From NCBI GenBank assembly GCA_033286805.1, contig GCA_033286805.1_4727.1: a DNA stretch of 64,000 nucleotides; one strand, written 5' to 3'. The notes beneath the pieces are model-generated. The model was given only the letters and a program-made list of their open reading frames with translations. It made no database searches and was not told where the DNA came from. Source of the stretch: a phage. A program made the position numbers and the translations under genes. Shown in pieces: positions 6,771-28,634 of the stretch (the stretch's first letter is position 1; the number at the start of each line of letters is the position of its first letter).

Positions 6771-8852
6771 ATGTTGGATAGAATCAATCGTTTAATGAAC
6801 CGAATAACGGTTAAAAATCAGAGTAACAATACCGTGCATATCGGGGGTATCGATGCCTGGCGTCTTTCAGATGACATTCAGCGAATATGGGGTACCTCCC
6901 GATTTATGAAACATATGTTTCGTAATTTCTCTTCTAGTGGACTCAGTCTCCACAATTTTTACCTTCCCGATTTCGTTTATATTCTCGAAACGATCATCGA
7001 AGCAAAGAATACCCGCAGTAATAAACGCATGCTGAAACACCTTATTGAGGTACTGCTGCAGGAAACCTGGTTGCAAAATACCACAATCGAGCAACCTGCA
7101 ATCCTCGATAAAGCACGCATGAACAAAATGCTAACGCTCTCCCTGTTCGATTATCAAGATGAGTTTATCGACATCTATAACCGTAACGTACCTAAATATC
7201 GACTGAAAGGATACGTGTGTGCGATGGGTGCGGGTGCTGGTAAAACAATCACCGCATTGGCTTTAAGCGCCGCAATGAACGTCGACGTATTTGTGGTCTG
7301 CTGTCCTAAGAACACCATGCGTTCAGCATGGCAATCCGATGTAAACAAAGCCATCGTTGACCCCGCAACAGAAACCGCATTCTGGTCAGATACAATGCCA
7401 CCATCACAGCTGCAGAAAAGCGATAAGTATTATTTTCTGCATTACGAGTCGATGGGTTTATTAAACGATGTAATGATCAAGCATAAACGCACCGCGAAGC
7501 GAGTTCTTATTGTTGTTGACGAAAGCCATAACTTCAACGACAAGAACAGCCAACGTTCCCAACGACTGGTTGATCTCGTACAGACGATGCGTCAGACCAT
7601 GAATGCTGATGTTCATGTCTTGTTTATGTCGGGTACGCCTGTTAAACAAATGGGTTCTGAGATGATCCCGTGTTTAGGTTGTATTGACCCAATGTTCCAA
7701 GGACAGGTGGTCGATAGCTTCAAAGCAATTTACGGTTTAACCAGCAGTCGCGCTAACGATATCCTCAGACATCGTCTTGGGTTCATGATGCATGTCGTAC
7801 CTAAAGAGGCTTATCGTAAAACCCGTCCGGAAGTTCAGGACGTTTACGTGAAGCTCCCTAACGGTAGCGATTATACCATCTCAAGTATCCGCGACGACAT
7901 GGCGATATTTGTACGCGATCGGGCAAAGTATTACAAGGATAACTGGGGGCATTACAGAAAGATTTTTGATGACGCCTTGGACTACTATCGTAAGACTATT
8001 CGTACCGATGGTGAACGTAAAGAGCTATCTCGATACGAATCGATTGTTGCTCGTTTCCAGAAAGGTTACGACCCCGTCAGAGACAAAGAAGATGCGATGT
8101 TCTGCAACGCGTTTGAAAAACGTTCCATCATGCCGGTTCTTCCTTCCGATTTAAGGGTTGCTTTCAAAGACGCCAAGAGCGTCATCAAGTACGTTGGGTT
8201 GAAAATTCAGGGTGAAGCGTTGGCACGTGTTCTAGGTGCAGCCCGCATTCGGTGTCATGTCGACATGGTGGAGTACATCGACTTCGAAGGGTACATCAAT
8301 AACGCCGAAGCCAAAGTGTTGATCTTCACGTCGTACGTTCAGGTGGTTGAACGCGTCGACAACATGCTTCGTGATGCGGGTTTCTTACCTGAACCCATTT
8401 ACGGGAAGACCAACAAGAACATCAACCAAATACTTGCTCGTCTACGCGATGATCCTGACAGCGGTCCCGCTATCGCAACATTTGATAGCTTAGCTGAAGG
8501 GGTTCCGATGCTGATGTGTAATGTCGGCCTTTTCCTGAACAATCCATGGCGTTCATCCGATGAAATCCAAGCCATCAGCCGTCTCGATCGTGTAGGGCAA
8601 ACGCAGCCCGTTCGGATTTATCGTTTCATGTTGGATACAGGAAGCGAGGGTAACGTTTCTACACGTAGCCACGAAATCATGGAGTTAAGTCGACAGCTTG
8701 TTGAAGAAATCACGGGTGTCAAATATGTAGTGAACAAGCAAGACGATGTTAACTTGCAAGAAACGTTGGCGATGGAAGGATACGATCAATACGTTACCGT
8801 AAACACCACGGAATACGATATTAAACCGCGACCTGCATTCTTGGAATGGTGA
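6771..8852 (+). CDS. SNF2/Rad54-like superfamily-2 helicase/ATPase
   Basis: Walker A GAGAGKT, DExH box VVDESHN, motif III MSGTP, C-terminal helicase domain with Q..R..R.GQ-like motif VI (AISRLDRVGQ); start moved to ATG 6771 because the GTG at 6723 lies inside a hairpin. Confidence 0.7.
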   Translation: MLDRINRLMNRITVKNQSNNTVHIGGIDAWRLSDDIQRIWGTSRFMKHMFRNFSSSGLSLHNFYLPDFVYILETIIEAKNTRSNKRMLKHLIEVLLQETWLQNTTIEQPAILDKARMNKMLTLSLFDYQDEFIDIYNRNVPKYRLKGYVCAMGAGAGKTITALALSAAMNVDVFVVCCPKNTMRSAWQSDVNKAIVDPATETAFWSDTMPPSQLQKSDKYYFLHYESMGLLNDVMIKHKRTAKRVLIVVDESHNFNDKNSQRSQRLVDLVQTMRQTMNADVHVLFMSGTPVKQMGSEMIPCLGCIDPMFQGQVVDSFKAIYGLTSSRANDILRHRLGFMMHVVPKEAYRKTRPEVQDVYVKLPNGSDYTISSIRDDMAIFVRDRAKYYKDNWGHYRKIFDDALDYYRKTIRTDGERKELSRYESIVARFQKGYDPVRDKEDAMFCNAFEKRSIMPVLPSDLRVAFKDAKSVIKYVGLKIQGEALARVLGAARIRCHVDMVEYIDFEGYINNAEAKVLIFTSYVQVVERVDNMLRDAGFLPEPIYGKTNKNINQILARLRDDPDSGPAIATFDSLAEGVPMLMCNVGLFLNNPWRSSDEIQAISRLDRVGQTQPVRIYRFMLDTGSEGNVSTRSHEIMELSRQLVEEITGVKYVVNKQDDVNLQETLAMEGYDQYVTVNTTEYDIKPRPAFLEW

Positions 8853-22433: not shown

Positions 22434-24020
22434 TTAGAAGTTGCCTTTGGTAGTTACCGCATCCACCAGGTTAAACAAATCAACGCTCAGCTTATACACC
22501 TCCTGCTGGCTACGGTTGAGCAGCGGACTGTATGCAGATGGGTTGATGTTCGGCATGGTGTACGGAATCGGTGCAGAACCGTCAACGCTGATCTTGAACT
22601 GGCTGTCCAGGAACAGGTTAATCGCGCCGCTCACCATAACCGCATTCGGGTTGTTGCCCAACATGGAGGGTAGGATATTGGTAATCATGTCAGAACGCAT
22701 TTGTTCAGCAGCACGGTTACAATCGTATCCTTTAATGAACGGTACTGCGTCGGTAACCGCAACCGCCCACTGACCTGGCATGATACCGAGTTCTGGGTGA
22801 CCATGGTTGTCAGCAATGAAACGGAACGATTCCAACATGCGATACGTCATCGCAGCAGGCATCATTGCAGCAAGCGATGAACAATACAGCGTTGGATAAT
22901 CGATCACATCCCAGCTCTGGCTGTCGGTCGGCATCCAACCAAACTCGGTGGTTGCTGATGTACCACGACGAGCTTCCACATACGGGAATAACGTTAAGAC
23001 GTCACGGATATGTTCACCGAACATCCGTTTCATGTCAGCCCAACTCAGGCTACCGCTGAAAGCGAATCCTTCATCACGCATAATCGCACCGAATACCGGA
23101 TGCGCAACCAACGGTTCTTCACGAACAGCTTGAGCGGCTTCCACGTAAATATCCTCGTTCTCTGCGCTACCTGGATGAGACCCGCTTTCGTACGTCTGAC
23201 GAATAGCTCCAACATTATCGAAGGCTTTTCTCAGATAGATGGTTGGGATGTTCGTATCGGCACTAGCGGGTTTGATTTTCTCTGTCGCGAAACACATTGC
23301 TGCTTCCACACCACGGAAAACCGGTTCCGGTTGCGGTGGATAGGATGTACGATGAACCACATCAGCGTAGGCTGGATCGAACTGTTGCATCACGTTCTGC
23401 ATGGCTGGGTCCATGAACTGGTTATCAAAACCACCATTACCTACCCAACGTGCTGTTGATGCATAGGTCAGCGTATCCTGAACACGAGTACTGAACTGAA
23501 CATCACGATTAACAGGGTCGTATGCGCCGGTCAACAGGTTCGTTGCGTCCATCGGGGTCGCGCGAACGATTTGCTTACCGAACATATCTGTCGTGGTTGT
23601 TTCGGTTACCTGGATTACGTTCGTGAAGAAGAACACCAGTTCATTCGGCAGATCGATAGCACGCGTTGTAAACGCATCGAGGCTTACAGAATGGTCGGTG
23701 TATCCAGAAATGTAATGGACACGCTTGGTTCCTGGTGCAAGGGCCAAGGATTCTTCTACCGCCATCATGAAATGGAAACGGCGTGTGCCCCAACCATTCG
23801 CAATCTCCGAAACCCCCTCAGGTTCTGCAGACTGCTGCAACAAACCGGTTGCAAGCTTATTGATTGCTGATGGTGTTGTTGCCGTACCGAACCGCGTCGT
23901 GTTAATAAAGTCTTCGATGCTACGCATGCTATCTGCGTGGAATCGTAGTGGACGACGTTGTACGTTGTTGTACGGTGCGGTTTCAACCATCAGTATTTCA
24001 CGAACATTCATCGGGATCAT
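22434..24020 (-). CDS. hypothetical protein (528 aa), possibly abundant/structural
   Basis: Long ORF with preference for cgt/ctg/ggt-type codons. Confidence 0.6.
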   Translation of the reverse strand: MIPMNVREILMVETAPYNNVQRRPLRFHADSMRSIEDFINTTRFGTATTPSAINKLATGLLQQSAEPEGVSEIANGWGTRRFHFMMAVEESLALAPGTKRVHYISGYTDHSVSLDAFTTRAIDLPNELVFFFTNVIQVTETTTTDMFGKQIVRATPMDATNLLTGAYDPVNRDVQFSTRVQDTLTYASTARWVGNGGFDNQFMDPAMQNVMQQFDPAYADVVHRTSYPPQPEPVFRGVEAAMCFATEKIKPASADTNIPTIYLRKAFDNVGAIRQTYESGSHPGSAENEDIYVEAAQAVREEPLVAHPVFGAIMRDEGFAFSGSLSWADMKRMFGEHIRDVLTLFPYVEARRGTSATTEFGWMPTDSQSWDVIDYPTLYCSSLAAMMPAAMTYRMLESFRFIADNHGHPELGIMPGQWAVAVTDAVPFIKGYDCNRAAEQMRSDMITNILPSMLGNNPNAVMVSGAINLFLDSQFKISVDGSAPIPYTMPNINPSAYSPLLNRSQQEVYKLSVDLFNLVDAVTTKGNF

Positions 24021-24021
24021 T

Positions 24022-25608
24022 TTATTTTTTTCCTCTTAAATTTACTACGTGTTCATTTAATCGAACAACTAATTGCACAAGCTGCTGACGGATATCTGCT
24101 GGACAAAGCATCAATCCTTTACGATCAGCTGGGACTTTCTCAAGGATTTCCGGGCCTGCTGCTGAAACATCCCAGTCCCATTCACAAAACGCATCGGCCA
24201 CCATGTTAATACCGACAACCGGTAAAGTTGTACGTTCATCTTCATACATGGCGTGTGGATACAATTTATTGACAGTAATGATCTCCTGTGGTTTTAATTG
24301 GTGGATAATCTGATAAACATCGTCGCGTTTAACCTGGATACCTACGGTCAGCGCTGCTAGTTGAGGAAAACCCCAATGGTCTAATAAGCAAGCTGCGATC
24401 GCTAACGCTTTTGCTTGATGCACGGCTTCAATCGGTGCCAGACTTCTCGCCGGAAGATGGCTATCAAGCAACCATTGTGCCAGTGCTCGGCATCCACGGT
24501 TGATTGGTTTTAACTCAACGGTGTCATCATGTTTAGCGTACGTGTATCCGTCGTAACGTTTTGCGATACGCGCATACATGTCTTCAACTTTACCGTAAGG
24601 TGCTGTTTCGTCGACGTCGTGTAACACACGTTCCATCTGGGTAAGATACGCAATGTCGAGAATGAGTACACGTGGTGAACGTTTATCTTTCACCATCAAC
24701 GCATCAATCACGCCTTGACTATCTTCATCTTGCGCGTTCCCTCGCGGGGTTTTCTCACGAATCGGTCCGCTGAAACGTCGTTCCGTACAAAGGTTATTCA
24801 CATAGCTAAAGATCAGTGTTACCAGATGCGTACAACTCACCAACACCCCATCTTTAACGACAGGCTGTACGGCTTGGTCCAAGTCGCGTACGGCGAGGCG
24901 GCGGACGATGGCTTGTGAACGCAACCAGCCGGGCACTTTCTCCGTCGACATGTAATCCACGGTCATCGACAGTGTGATCTTTTTATCACCCGTCTGTGCG
25001 CGGATATAGTCTTCCAGTCGGTCGTAAGCGGCGATATCATGGATGCGTGTTTTATACATCAACGACATGGCCACTTCTTCTTTACGGACTGTCCCGTACG
25101 TTTTCCCTGCGTCAATCAGAAACTCTGCCCAAATCGGCACCATCAGACGGACGTAGATCGCTAACGCTGTTAACTCAACGTAATCATTTCGTAAATAGGT
25201 TTTCTCAGGTATGTCATCCTCACCTAATGTTGTTTTCATGTCTGGTGGTAATTTTACCCAACCTGGGGTATTACACAACGCCAGAATCTCTTCATACACA
25301 ACCGGTTTGTAAATTTCACCAACAGCGCGACTCAACTCCTCCATTTGTTGTTGTGGAGCAATGTAGTTATCCATCGCTTCACGTGCTTTAACGAACCCTT
25401 CGAAGATGTCGTCAATTCGACGTGGGTTCTTTTGTTCTATCCAGGCGAGATACTTGTTAATCTCCCGCATCTGATTGCTAGCCATATCCCCATCAATCTT
25501 GATGTAACCCTGACCTGAAAATTCTACAGTACGTCCATCACGATGTTTGATGAGATAGTGATCCAGCTTTTCTTTTCCTTGCGTCGTAATGACGGGCACT
25601 ATGTGCAT
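24022..25608 (-). CDS. hypothetical early protein (about 528 aa)
   Basis: Start moved to ATG 25608 (AGAGG SD); early-promoter-like motif at 25659..25682 lies inside the track-extended N-terminus. Confidence 0.6.
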   Translation of the reverse strand: MHIVPVITTQGKEKLDHYLIKHRDGRTVEFSGQGYIKIDGDMASNQMREINKYLAWIEQKNPRRIDDIFEGFVKAREAMDNYIAPQQQMEELSRAVGEIYKPVVYEEILALCNTPGWVKLPPDMKTTLGEDDIPEKTYLRNDYVELTALAIYVRLMVPIWAEFLIDAGKTYGTVRKEEVAMSLMYKTRIHDIAAYDRLEDYIRAQTGDKKITLSMTVDYMSTEKVPGWLRSQAIVRRLAVRDLDQAVQPVVKDGVLVSCTHLVTLIFSYVNNLCTERRFSGPIREKTPRGNAQDEDSQGVIDALMVKDKRSPRVLILDIAYLTQMERVLHDVDETAPYGKVEDMYARIAKRYDGYTYAKHDDTVELKPINRGCRALAQWLLDSHLPARSLAPIEAVHQAKALAIAACLLDHWGFPQLAALTVGIQVKRDDVYQIIHQLKPQEIITVNKLYPHAMYEDERTTLPVVGINMVADAFCEWDWDVSAAGPEILEKVPADRKGLMLCPADIRQQLVQLVVRLNEHVVNLRGKK

Positions 25609-25658
25609 AACAACCTCTTTTCGCGGTTCCCTGTTAAAACGTCTTCTGTGACGTCTAC

Positions 25659-25682
25659 CACAAAGGTAATATAAGCGTGAAT
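25659..25682 (-). promoter_or_regulatory. early-promoter-like motif (minus-sense ATTCACGCTTATATTACCTTTGTG)
   Basis: Same motif, 58 nt upstream of ATG 25608. Confidence 0.5.
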
Positions 25683-25812
25683 AATTTTGGATTCCGGCTG
25701 AGTTATCGCTCAGCATGCAAGGCATCCCGCCGAAGCGAGACACCTTGCACTAACGGAAAATATTCGCGTTACCTTCTGAATCGAAGACTCAGAATGCGAT
25801 ACTAAAGCATCA

Positions 25813-26601
25813 TTAGAATGCTAAACCATCAAAGGCGATTGACGGATCATCGTCGTCATTTGCGCTAGGCGCGTCCCAACGTGTGTCAGGGGCTGCTGAA
25901 GCCGAACTTGAGGCATTAGAGTTACCGTTGTACTGGCCGTTACCAGCATTACGGTTACCGCCACCGTTGTTATTGTTACGATTGTAGCTGTTGTTACCAT
26001 TGCTTACGCTACGACTTTCACCGTCAAAGTTGGTTGCGAGGATGCTTGGTAACACCGCACGATGGATACGTACGAATTCCAGCGCACAAAGCGGAGAAAC
26101 AACACCGATCTGCAAAGGTTGTCCAGACTCATCAACCAAAGCGTGGAAACGCGGCGGTTTGAACACGAATTGGATGTTCGGTTTTTGGTACGCGGTTACC
26201 GCGATGTACACCGAACCATCGTCATTCTTACCCACCCACGTTGTGCTCTCGGTAATCTGCTTTTTCTTACCTGGGTTATTGCGATCATCGATAACCTTTT
26301 CGTTCTTCATCGCAAAGCGTTGACCAGGTTTACCCTTAGCAACCTGCTCGAGGATCGCAAGCAGGTTATAGAACGCGTATGAGCTCATGCGTGCCCAAAT
26401 GCTTTCAGCGCGACCCTGCTGGTCTTTACGACCGGTGTAAACCGTGATACGCGGTTGATTCTTAGCAACGCTAATTTTCAATGAGGGGACTGAATTACCG
26501 CCCTCAACCTTTTCGTCCGCCCACAGTTTCCAGTTGTTGTCGTCATACGCTGTAGGAATAATGTTTCCTTGTGGTTTACTGCCCGAATTCCAATTGCTCA
26601 T
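25813..26601 (-). CDS. putative nucleic-acid-binding protein with disordered Asn/Gly-rich linker and acidic tail (SSB-like architecture), 262 aa
   Basis: Folded N-terminal ~180 aa, then NGNNSYNRNNNNGGGNRNAGNGQYNGNS low-complexity, ending NDDDDPSIAFDGLAF; architecture only, no fold evidence. Confidence 0.4.
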   Translation of the reverse strand: MSNWNSGSKPQGNIIPTAYDDNNWKLWADEKVEGGNSVPSLKISVAKNQPRITVYTGRKDQQGRAESIWARMSSYAFYNLLAILEQVAKGKPGQRFAMKNEKVIDDRNNPGKKKQITESTTWVGKNDDGSVYIAVTAYQKPNIQFVFKPPRFHALVDESGQPLQIGVVSPLCALEFVRIHRAVLPSILATNFDGESRSVSNGNNSYNRNNNNGGGNRNAGNGQYNGNSNASSSASAAPDTRWDAPSANDDDDPSIAFDGLAF

Positions 26602-26674
26602 TTTCAGCCTCGTTACGTAGTGTGAATCAATTTCTGGTTCAGATGATAGTTAATATTAGTTAAAAATTACAGCC

Positions 26675-27472
26675 TCAGCGGAACATGTCCAACAGAAAAC
26701 GTTTTGCAAAGGGGTCACGTAACTGGTTGACGCCAAAGCGCGTACGGTCTTCCGTTGTTAATGGATTCCACTGACTCTGTTTCGCAAGATCTAACAGCAT
26801 CCTTTTTATTTTCACCGGCCCACTGTTAAACTGTACGGCTTGGTCACCGAACGTTCCCAAGGTCATCTTTGTAAATGGAAGATTCGCAACCTCTGGACGA
26901 TCCCCACCAGTAAGTTTAGTCGACCACTGATGTTTTCGTTTCAAGGTTCCGGTATGGCTCTCTACCAAAATAAGTTCACCAAAACCGGTTCTTGCCAACA
27001 AGTCAGAAACATAGTGCGTGGTGATATACGATGTCTTGGTTATCGCGGGTAATTTACAATCCATCGATTCGATATTAGGGAGTCGATCTACAGACGCCAT
27101 TAACCCACGATAAAGTGTCGCGAGTCCTTTTTGTTTTTCGGTGTGTGGCTCCTTATGTATAGCGTGCGGATAAACACGCTTTATTGATGCGTAGGTTGGC
27201 GCATATATCCGCAAGCGAATATGAGGAACGAGTTCATTCACCAGCTGCCTTAGCTGCAGTAATTCGTTTTGAAAATCCCCCGTTATCGTCGACAACGGTA
27301 ATTTATGTTGTTCAACGTCTTCAAAGCTTTCAACGAAATTGCGTGCTAAAGTACGCAGGTTGAACAACCAATCCATCGGTGTTTCTGGCTGTTGCTGCAC
27401 TGCGGATAGTGTTGCTGATGTCCCTACCGATAAAGGATAATCACCTAACGTGCGGGCGTACATATCGCTCAT
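26675..27472 (-). CDS. hypothetical protein (about 265 aa)
   Basis: Track start is TTG at 27508; first ATG with AAGGAG SD is at 27472. Confidence 0.5.
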   Translation of the reverse strand: MSDMYARTLGDYPLSVGTSATLSAVQQQPETPMDWLFNLRTLARNFVESFEDVEQHKLPLSTITGDFQNELLQLRQLVNELVPHIRLRIYAPTYASIKRVYPHAIHKEPHTEKQKGLATLYRGLMASVDRLPNIESMDCKLPAITKTSYITTHYVSDLLARTGFGELILVESHTGTLKRKHQWSTKLTGGDRPEVANLPFTKMTLGTFGDQAVQFNSGPVKIKRMLLDLAKQSQWNPLTTEDRTRFGVNQLRDPFAKRFLLDMFR

Positions 27473-27491
27473 ACCCCACAACTCCTTCTTA

Positions 27492-28634
27492 TCATGGCAA
27501 CGTATCAAGCCAAGCAGAAACCTTTAAGGCGTCAACGTTCGGGTATTTATTACGGATGCGTTCAACCAACAAACGCTTAACGTTGTCCTTTGTCAAGTCC
27601 CCACCTTTCTCGATAACGTTATTGACAAAACTGTTCTTTAATAGCGACTGGTTGTTCTTGGCATCCGTTTTAATTGACCAGACAAAGCCCGGATACAAAG
27701 AAGGGATAGAACGAAACGTTTTCGCTGCGTCGTCTTCCTTATCGCAGCGTATTCGAATATGATCGCCCTTCTTCAATGGAGCCAATTCCCGTTCCAACAC
27801 ACGGACAATTTCATCTCCAACAAGACCATGCAGTTTTATCGTCTTATAGACATCTGCTTTCTTGTTCTCAACAAATTCCCACTGGTCGTTAAACGATTCT
27901 GTTAACGTATAACGGAGATACCCCTTTGGACCTTCTTCGCCATGCGCCAAGCGACCAAACGAACCGCCAACCATGATACGTCCTTTCTGGGATTGTAAGT
28001 GGATATGCCCGCTCACAATCCATCCCTGGGTCTTCTCTACCATTGAGTTATACGCATCACTGCTATGAACACATGTTGCTTTTAACGCTTCTGGTGGAAG
28101 CTGATATTCAAACGCACCGTGCATCAGAATGAAGTCTGGCGATCCCTTCTCATCAATAAGTCGGTTCACGGCCGACAACGTCACATCCGGATCGTGGCTG
28201 TAGTTATCTGGAAGATAAAGCACTTTTAAACCAAAGTCTTCATCAACCATGCAGAGGTCATCGTAATAACGAACTTTCGCTCCTATCTCCATGACCTCGT
28301 TCTGTTCAACGAACCACTGACTTTGCTTCTGGTCGTGTAAATTGGTACCCTCAAGAAAGATCAACGTAATATCGTGTTTTCTCGCATACCGTAACAACCA
28401 GGTACCCCAGGCACGAACAGCAACCACATCACTCGTCACAAATGTCGTAATACGATCGAAGACATCGCCACTGAACGTAATCACATCAAGCAGCGCAGGA
28501 TCTTCTTTTGTAATGTAATAACGCAGTTGGCTAATCAGGTTTACTGTCGGTGTTTGACGATGGATAAAGTGAATATCCGACAAATTGATTCCACGTAATA
28601 CCCCAGGCGTTTTATTTCGACTGAAGTCTCGCAT
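27492..28634 (-). CDS. Mre11/SbcD-like metallophosphoesterase nuclease (380 aa)
   Basis: Ordered phosphoesterase motifs DIHF, GDVFD, GTNLHD, H, GHIH. Confidence 0.6.
   Translation of the reverse strand: MRDFSRNKTPGVLRGINLSDIHFIHRQTPTVNLISQLRYYITKEDPALLDVITFSGDVFDRITTFVTSDVVAVRAWGTWLLRYARKHDITLIFLEGTNLHDQKQSQWFVEQNEVMEIGAKVRYYDDLCMVDEDFGLKVLYLPDNYSHDPDVTLSAVNRLIDEKGSPDFILMHGAFEYQLPPEALKATCVHSSDAYNSMVEKTQGWIVSGHIHLQSQKGRIMVGGSFGRLAHGEEGPKGYLRYTLTESFNDQWEFVENKKADVYKTIKLHGLVGDEIVRVLERELAPLKKGDHIRIRCDKEDDAAKTFRSIPSLYPGFVWSIKTDAKNNQSLLKNSFVNNVIEKGGDLTKDNVKRLLVERIRNKYPNVDALKVSAWLDTLP

Follow-up and report, generated by a model that had tools for sequence, protein, structure and literature searches.

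A Goslar-like chmC (imp6) gene in a phage contig, and the likeness of the ChmC family's C-terminal peptide to that of bacterial SSB

The stretch of DNA analyzed here, 64,000 nucleotides (nt) from a phage (GenBank assembly GCA_033286805.1, contig GCA_033286805.1_4727.1) and referred to below as the window, encodes on its minus strand, at positions 25813 to 26601, a protein of 262 amino acids that we identify, with a probability of roughly 0.9, as ChmC (Imp6) of a Goslar-like chimallivirus: an RNA- and single-stranded DNA (ssDNA)-binding protein of the phage nucleus, with a predicted Whirly domain and a disordered tail. The gene is already characterized, and its annotation should read chmC/imp6 rather than "hypothetical protein"; what is new, within the literature that we searched, is the likeness of ChmC tails to the C-terminal peptide of SSB, the single-stranded-DNA-binding protein of bacteria. 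An earlier note on this DNA had placed a 262-residue protein at these positions, and the reading frame was confirmed; its strand, which the note had not given, is minus. The coding sequence consists of 262 codons and a TAA stop (25813 to 25815), and a ribosome-binding site, GAGG, can be read from the sequence 6 nt upstream of the ATG (26608 to 26611, minus strand). Read on the plus strand, these positions are riddled with stops.

The identification draws on the list of open reading frames (ORFs), on identity to Escherichia phage Goslar and on a protein family match. Over the 5.5 kb around chmC, the window is 97.7% identical in nucleotide sequence to Goslar, and 260 of the 262 residues (99.2%) are those of Goslar gp176 (Goslar_00176), which occupies the same locus with the same neighbors; the two substitutions are conservative, with V38 replacing I and, within the C-terminal tip, I255 replacing V. 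The source phage is thus a relative of Goslar, a nucleus-forming jumbo phage, and therefore nucleus forming itself. The protein also matched phrog_3284, labeled "unknown function" in PHROGs (E = 5.7e-36), and tblastn retrieved phiKZ gp67 (E = 4e-11) and PhiPA3 gp61 (E = 1e-7), which, together with 201phi2-1 gp123, are among its remoter homologues. A profile confined to the folded domain recovered 120 homologues and, from a library of 1.8 billion proteins, a family of 1,187 clusters at 50% identity. A Pfam scan, which also took in five neighboring proteins, assigned ChmC to no family at E <= 1, neither SSB, Whirly nor PurA.

Goslar gp176, PhiPA3 gp61 and phiKZ gp67 have been described as ChmC, an early, abundant, phage nucleus-associated protein identified through proximity labeling with the recombinase UvsX, predicted to adopt a Whirly fold and forming a homotetramer in solution (Enustun et al. 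2024, Nucleic Acids Research, PMC11077065). PhiPA3 ChmC binds single-stranded RNA (ssRNA) and ssDNA with dissociation constants of about 58 and 184 nM, respectively; phage mRNAs are bound in vivo, as determined by enhanced crosslinking and immunoprecipitation (eCLIP), and the condensates that ChmC forms with RNA depend on its C-terminal 50 to 70 residues (PMC11077065). Nucleic acid is held on the basic sheet surface, as published for the orthologues. Goslar ChmC, which localizes to nuclear and shell puncta, is needed if mRNA is to leave the nucleus, the nucleus to grow, protein to be made and plaques to form: upon knockdown, phage mRNA stays trapped in the nucleus; knockdown also leaves nuclei small and lowers the level of phage protein, and neither the Rmut variant nor a C-terminal truncation (deltaC) rescues it (PMC11077065). 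In PhiPA3, a green fluorescent protein (GFP) fusion to ChmC marks the shell and the cytoplasm, not the whole of the DNA-filled lumen, and the deltaC protein loses its shell localization (PMC11077065). With 260 of 262 residues in common with gp176, the published Goslar results should apply to the window protein, and the suggestion that it might be a nucleus-associated nucleic acid-binding factor is borne out by this work, with ssRNA preferred over ssDNA. Independently, phiKZ gp67 was named Imp6 because of its direct complex with the import factor Imp1/PicA, stable in size exclusion chromatography at a ratio of about 2:1; imp6 is essential in phiKZ, the protein was missed by genetic import selections and came from a candidate pull-down, and reviews count ChmC/Imp6 among the factors that help certain cargos to be imported.

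AlphaFold2, run on ChmC with a 121-sequence alignment, predicted a Whirly-type nucleic acid-binding domain at residues ~20 to 195 (26017 to 26544, minus strand). Block means of the predicted local distance difference test (pLDDT) were 94 to 98 at residues 21 to 190 and stayed above 90 until about residue 195; the N-terminal lead-in was of lower confidence (residues 1 to 19, 26545 to 26601; means of 52 to 73 in the first two 10-residue blocks), and values fell below 50 across most of residues 199 to 262. The modeled domain comprises strands at 40 to 46, 49 to 59 and 65 to 71 with a helix at 74 to 89, followed by strands at 95 to 105, 113 to 125, 131 to 137 and 143 to 146 with a helix at 165 to 190, a repetition of the beta-sheet-plus-helix module of the Whirly/PUR superfamily. 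Its closest structural matches were plant ssDNA-binding Whirly proteins, at 7 to 10% identity in structural alignments, and no OB-fold SSB was present among the strong matches. A Whirly-type fold for the N-terminal ~190 residues is supported by the model; of the OB and whirly-like folds that had been put forward for checking, it is the second that AlphaFold2 predicts, and the OB fold was not found. In comparison with other members of the superfamily (plant p24/PBF-2, StWhy2, Trypanosoma brucei MRP1/MRP2 and Pur-alpha, at the same 7 to 10% identity), ChmC is unusual in that the first repeat has three predicted strands rather than four, in having no Pfam Whirly match and in its long, SSB-like tail.

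The tail, of about 65 residues, has three parts, all encoded on the minus strand. An Asn/Gly-rich disordered linker at residues 199 to 228 (25918 to 26007; pLDDT below 50), with Tyr/Arg "stickers" (SYNR, GNR and QYNG), is 67% Asn plus Gly, and the richest 30-residue segment of the protein reaches 70%, against a background of 10.9% among the 50 ORFs of at least 150 amino acids in the window, the second richest of which attains 40% at most; the bias is extreme. It is followed by a Ser/Ala-rich spacer, NASSSASAAPDTRWDAPSA, at residues 229 to 247 (25861 to 25917; 58% Ser plus Ala, pLDDT mostly below 50), and by an acidic tip with a hydrophobic end, NDDDDPSIAFDGLAF, at residues 248 to 262 (25816 to 25860), the net charge of which is -5, versus +7 for residues 1 to 198. 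The confidence profile, the 67 to 70% Asn plus Gly and the charge of -5 agree with the architecture that had been proposed, a folded domain, an Asn/Gly-rich disordered linker and an acidic tail. Both tail strings quoted in support of it are present, NGNNSYNRNNNNGGGNRNAGNGQYNGNS as residues 201 to 228 and NDDDDPSIAFDGLAF as residues 248 to 262, but they are not adjacent, the 19-residue spacer between them having been skipped.

Three smaller points concern the tail. A beta-clamp-binding motif in AFDGLAF or AFQGLPL was considered and dropped, the spacing, as judged by eye, being unlike the clamp consensus, QL[SD]LF or QxxLxF. The nearest database cluster (P0001) comprises 145 sequences, and one of these comes from a 241-kb contig of a Salmonella enterica assembly, so that Goslar-like phages are also present in Salmonella data; this relative has one more Gly than the window protein in the Asn/Gly tract (SNGGNNSY versus SNGNNSY, residues ~201 to 203, region 25996 to 26001), a slippage-type length polymorphism of the low-complexity linker. 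Several homologues (P0005, P0006, P0009, P0010, P0012 and others) bear the Joint Genome Institute (JGI) name "uncharacterized membrane protein YgcG", which is almost certainly a misannotation caused by the Gly-rich tail.

C termini were counted across the family in two sets, 121 homologues and 150 representatives at <=50% identity. The layout of an Asn/Gly-rich disordered C-terminal region followed by an acidic end is common to the 121 homologues, and 94 of them, together with 91 of the 150 representatives, end in P-[F/W], a proportion expected from composition alone to be about 0.4%. The longer pattern [DE][ILMVF]P[FW] closes 87 and 79 sequences, respectively; F or W is the last residue in 114 and 115; and the last residue is hydrophobic in 119 ([FWLIM]) and 145 ([FWLIMY]). 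Exceptions to P-[F/W] in the nonredundant set are mostly near variants, such as DDFPM, DDLPM and DDIPL. The canonical tip, D-D-[I/L]-P-[F/W], carries 2.2 to 3.0 bits per position across the last five residues and is kept between clusters less than 50% identical, whereas the linker is hypervariable (G/N/Q rich, 25 to 91 residues, of variable composition, with RGG/GNR-type motifs in 92 of the 121).

This consensus tip is, as judged from sequence, essentially the bacterial SSB C-terminal peptide. On a matrix made from the last nine residues of 149 representatives, with the window's own cluster excluded, the E. coli SSB tip MDFDDDIPF (MG1655 record), from which the family consensus is indistinguishable, scored 23.3 bits, compared with a family median of 17.3 and a 90th percentile of 22.5. 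The window tip, SIAFDGLAF, scored 7.0 bits, near the family's 10th percentile yet well clear of the null; the best of 328 other ORF C termini in the window scored 1.4 bits, and the best of its 20,361 internal 9-mers scored 10.7. In the window protein, DDDDPSIAFDGLAF still has the acidic run, and Phe is its last residue, but the Pro-Phe is missing; it is best read as a divergent version of the SSB-type peptide seen in the family. Of the SSB-like linker and tip that had been proposed, the disordered linker is present in the window protein and the tip in the family consensus, which matches the SSB peptide; in the window, the tip has diverged and the match is weak.

In bacterial SSB, a conserved binding domain is followed by a disordered linker that is not conserved and by a C-terminal peptide of nine residues that is highly conserved; this peptide has at least 18 partner proteins and binds the OB fold itself as well, and each of the three regions plays a part in phase separation (PMC7584906). 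ChmC shares with it (E. coli SSB, PF00436) a tetrameric core for single-stranded nucleic acid, a variable, disordered, G/N/Q-rich linker and, in the family consensus, a conserved peptide at the C terminus that is acidic and has Pro-Phe as its end, and phase separation depends on the tail in ChmC (PMC11077065) as in SSB (PMC7584906). It differs in that the core is predicted to be Whirly rather than OB, RNA is preferred, the protein is sited at the phage nuclear shell and the window tip is a weak match. In some homologues, the sequence before the tip resembles E. coli SSB as well: the end of P0195 is QQPAAPAAPSVTEPPLDFDTDIPF, compared with QQSAPAAPSNEPPMDFDDDIPF in E. coli, a match that has a z score of 7.4 even when the last six residues are removed, and 18 of 259 homologues match the E. 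coli tail at z >= 4 without the tip. At the DNA level, the P0195 tail is identical to E. coli ssb at only 52 of 75 positions, which rules out a recent transfer of the SSB tail into this protein. P0195 is also one of a few tandem duplications in the ChmC family (with P0125, P0158, P0202 and P0213; ~400 to 466 amino acids), in which two Whirly units are followed by one SSB-like tail; a tandem variant occupies the same syntenic slot in one of the loci compared (L009, 4459 to 5718), and a dimer of such a protein would have four Whirly units, paralleling the dimeric bacterial SSBs with four OB folds (PMC7584906).

The ChmC paper does not mention SSB, and its account of the tail's end goes no further than an "electronegative cluster" rich in S/D/E (PMC11077065). 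Within the literature searched, no phage paper dealt with ChmC and SSB together, recent reviews were silent as well, Whirly was mentioned for jumbo phages by the ChmC paper only, and nothing usable was found on a Whirly acidic autoregulatory tail or on "DDDIPF". The motif may have escaped notice because the three phages of that paper have atypical tips (DDEIPNF, DEDMPSF and DDDDPSIAFDGLAF).

We suggest that the ChmC tail may be organized like that of bacterial SSB. The composition-variable linker would supply the weak multivalent contacts that lead to condensation, whereas the conserved terminal peptide, canonically D-D-[I/L]-P-[F/W] and here DDDD-PSIAFDGLAF, would dock a partner that is itself conserved and resides in the nucleus or at the shell; the tip probably also folds back on the basic nucleic acid-binding surface, tuning binding. 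The likeness matters since the family tip matches the peptide by which SSB recruits at least 18 genome maintenance proteins, and phiKZ-like phages stand out among large phages in that searches have detected no SSB in them (PMC7584906, PMC4889955). Its value lies in the pattern across the family, and it bears on the replacement of SSB inside the phage nucleus and on the contacts made by the essential ChmC tail; with its diverged tip, the window protein is less directly concerned.

Several observations weigh against the identification and the model as set out above. Foldseek support for the Whirly fold was weak, with no match at E <= 0.001, and searches of the PDB, both with the single protein and with the 121-sequence profile, found no related solved structure, only chance matches such as WD40 and HEXIM1, so that the Whirly fold is a prediction. 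The window tip falls well short of the family motif (7.0 bits versus the median of 17.3). Published deltaC constructs remove the linker and the tip together (PMC11077065); hence, we can only infer a docking role for the tip, and neither the loss of localization in PhiPA3 nor the failure of rescue in Goslar can yet be assigned to loss of condensation alone, a caution that applies to the published deltaC phenotypes at large. The tips of cultured phages (DDEIPNF, DEDMPSF and FDTDVPM) do not copy those of their hosts' SSBs, which are DDDIPF or DDDLPF, and mimicry of host SSB as a general rule was unsupported.

To these must be added a difference in the binding surface. The window protein is without family-conserved lysines (81 to 93% conserved) at N23, S37 and Q144 (codons 26533 to 26535, 26491 to 26493 and 26170 to 26172), and Goslar-clade ChmC may consequently work somewhat differently. 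PhiPA3 gp61 and phiKZ gp67, at about 29 to 32% identity in the domain, have the same predicted Whirly domain, Asn/Gly linker and acidic end and the same synteny with gp68 and gp69, and their tips, GFDDEIPNF and AFDEDMPSF, stand against DDDDPSIAFDGLAF in the window. Among the residues altered in the RNA-binding mutants of PhiPA3 ChmC, alignment places Kmut residues K30, K48 and K59 at window positions S37, Y55 and E66, whereas Rmut residue R44 corresponds to R51 (93% conserved in the family), R35 to K42 and R63 to R71. Extra basic residues are found elsewhere in the window protein, with a net charge of +7 versus a family median of +4; the basic surface has therefore been redistributed in the Goslar clade, and the nucleic acid-binding surface appears to have been remodeled there together with the tip.

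How the tail and the tip are to be understood admits several other answers. The similarity to SSB may be functionally irrelevant, the tail being a promoter of condensates with an "electronegative cluster" that serves solubility and counters nonspecific binding, as the ChmC paper proposes; we hold this to be possible, if on the unlikely side. It accords with the authors' own description of the S/D/E-rich end and with the abolition of condensates by deltaC (PMC11077065), and the tips of the Goslar clade and of cultured phages deviate from the canonical motif in proteins that still function. A generic acidic cluster fails, however, to explain a position-specific D-D-[I/L]-P-[F/W] at the extreme C terminus, nor does it account for the tails that match that of E. 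coli SSB over a longer stretch.

That ChmC is primarily a structural cofactor of the import machinery (Imp6 with Imp1/PicA at the shell), with nucleic acid binding and condensation secondary or serving only as an anchor, we consider unlikely. The direct, chromatographically stable Imp1-Imp6 complex of about 2:1 argues for such a role, as do the position of chmC two genes from an Imp1/PicA homologue in all loci examined and the reviews that list ChmC/Imp6 as aiding the import of some cargos. Imp6 was not, however, recovered in the genetic import selections, only by candidate pull-down, there is no rescue by RNA-binding mutants, and mRNA localization is directly altered by knockdown (PMC11077065).

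Two further proposals, both of them quite doubtful in our estimation, give the SSB likeness a function. In one, ChmC is, or is also, the "missing" SSB of chimalliviruses, a Whirly-based nonorthologous replacement that coats ssDNA in the nucleus and organizes replication and recombination enzymes through its tip. A global survey of viral replication proteins detected no SSBs in phiKZ-like phages, called this surprising and raised nonorthologous displacement (PMC4889955), and the classic OB-fold SSB is listed in a jumbo phage survey as typical of group 2 and not of the phiKZ group, with the suggestion that unique binders of single strands were perhaps recruited (PMC7824862). The top structural matches to plant ssDNA-binding Whirly proteins, the identity of the family consensus tip to the SSB peptide and the parallel between tandem two-Whirly variants and dimeric four-OB-fold SSBs point the same way, as do the tetrameric state, great abundance, ssDNA dissociation constant of 184 nM and discovery by UvsX proximity of ChmC and the small nuclei that follow knockdown (PMC11077065). 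Set against them are the about 3-fold better binding of ssRNA than of ssDNA, the mRNA binding seen by eCLIP and the localization of PhiPA3 GFP-ChmC to the shell and cytoplasm and not across the DNA-filled lumen (PMC11077065), as well as the binding of ChmC to shell-associated Imp1 and the diverged tip in the window. In the other, ChmC would again be the SSB equivalent so far missing from phiKZ-like nucleus-forming phages, a Whirly tetramer with an SSB-type tail gained by capture or convergence, and D-D-[I/L]-P-F would be a hub through which partners in replication, recombination or import, from the phage or from the host SSB interactome, are brought to single-stranded nucleic acid in or at the nucleus; if so, the deltaC phenotypes would be due partly to loss of the hub, beyond loss of condensation. 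A canonical OB-fold SSB too diverged to be recognized by eye, which the tail architecture alone would favor, is scarcely credible given a predicted Whirly fold, no Pfam SSB (PF00436) match and no sequence relative in the PDB even with the 121-sequence profile.

The identification as chmC/imp6 is accompanied by conserved surroundings, in which the order SbcD-like, gp66-like, ChmC, gp68-like and Imp1-like is as in phiKZ and recurs in two uncultured jumbo phage contigs (L007 and L009). All five genes lie on the minus strand. The block starts with an SbcD/Mre11-like nuclease subunit (27492 to 28634; phrog_100, E = 1.7e-40, with a weak Metallophos match), in the position of phiKZ gp65, which is annotated as SbcD-like, and continues with an upstream neighbor of unknown function placed as gp66 is in phiKZ (26675 to 27508; phrog_3229). 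Downstream of chmC are a homologue of gp68, a non-virion RNA polymerase subunit (24022 to 25608; BLASTP E = 4e-34 to PHIKZ068, phrog_3209) and one of gp69, Imp1/PicA (22434 to 24020; BLASTP E = 2e-14 to PHIKZ069); the role of phiKZ gp68 as a subunit of that polymerase and the direct binding of Imp1 (gp69) to Imp6 are published. In the 277-kb contig L007, chmC and the gp68-like gene are separated by an extra gene of 263 amino acids (6957 to 7748), without detectable similarity to the window block. The SbcD-like and gp66-like ORFs overlap by 17 nt in the ORF list (27492 to 27508) because the latter was extended to an upstream TTG; Goslar gp177 starts further downstream (798 nt), without overlap.

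The 204 nt between chmC and the gp68-like gene (25609 to 25812, minus strand) are predicted to form a structured RNA, with a minimum free energy of -75.1 kcal/mol (z = -5.25 versus shuffled controls) and a 91-nt core with a z score of -5.58. A perfect 16-bp hairpin capped by a UUCG tetraloop lies at 25715 to 25750 (minus strand), and a strong hairpin directly after the chmC stop is also present in phiKZ, PhiPA3, 201phi2-1 and Bacillus phage AgentSmith. The octamer TATATTAC (25666 to 25673, minus strand) comes after the hairpins that follow chmC and before the gp68-like gene; we take it to resemble the phiKZ early-promoter motif, and it is similarly placed in phiKZ, PhiPA3 and 201phi2-1 (L002, 4700 to 4824; L003, 1294 to 1422; L004, 1291 to 1416). 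It occurs four times in the window, always on the minus strand, versus 2.3 expected, a count that is not significant by itself. An Rfam scan of 25300 to 26900 returned no family, only a subthreshold istR match (18 bits, where the gathering score is 45), and a scan for sigma-70 promoters and intrinsic terminators around chmC found no promoter-like site and, on the coding strand, no terminator-like site. Here the abundant chmC mRNA probably has a 3'-end or terminator structure, or a stabilizer, with a putative promoter of the downstream gene behind it. Through this structured region the gp68-like ORF can be extended by 45 codons upstream to a GTG (24022 to 25743, 573 amino acids); the Goslar annotation and the alignment with phiKZ gp68 favor the ATG at 25608 (528 amino acids).

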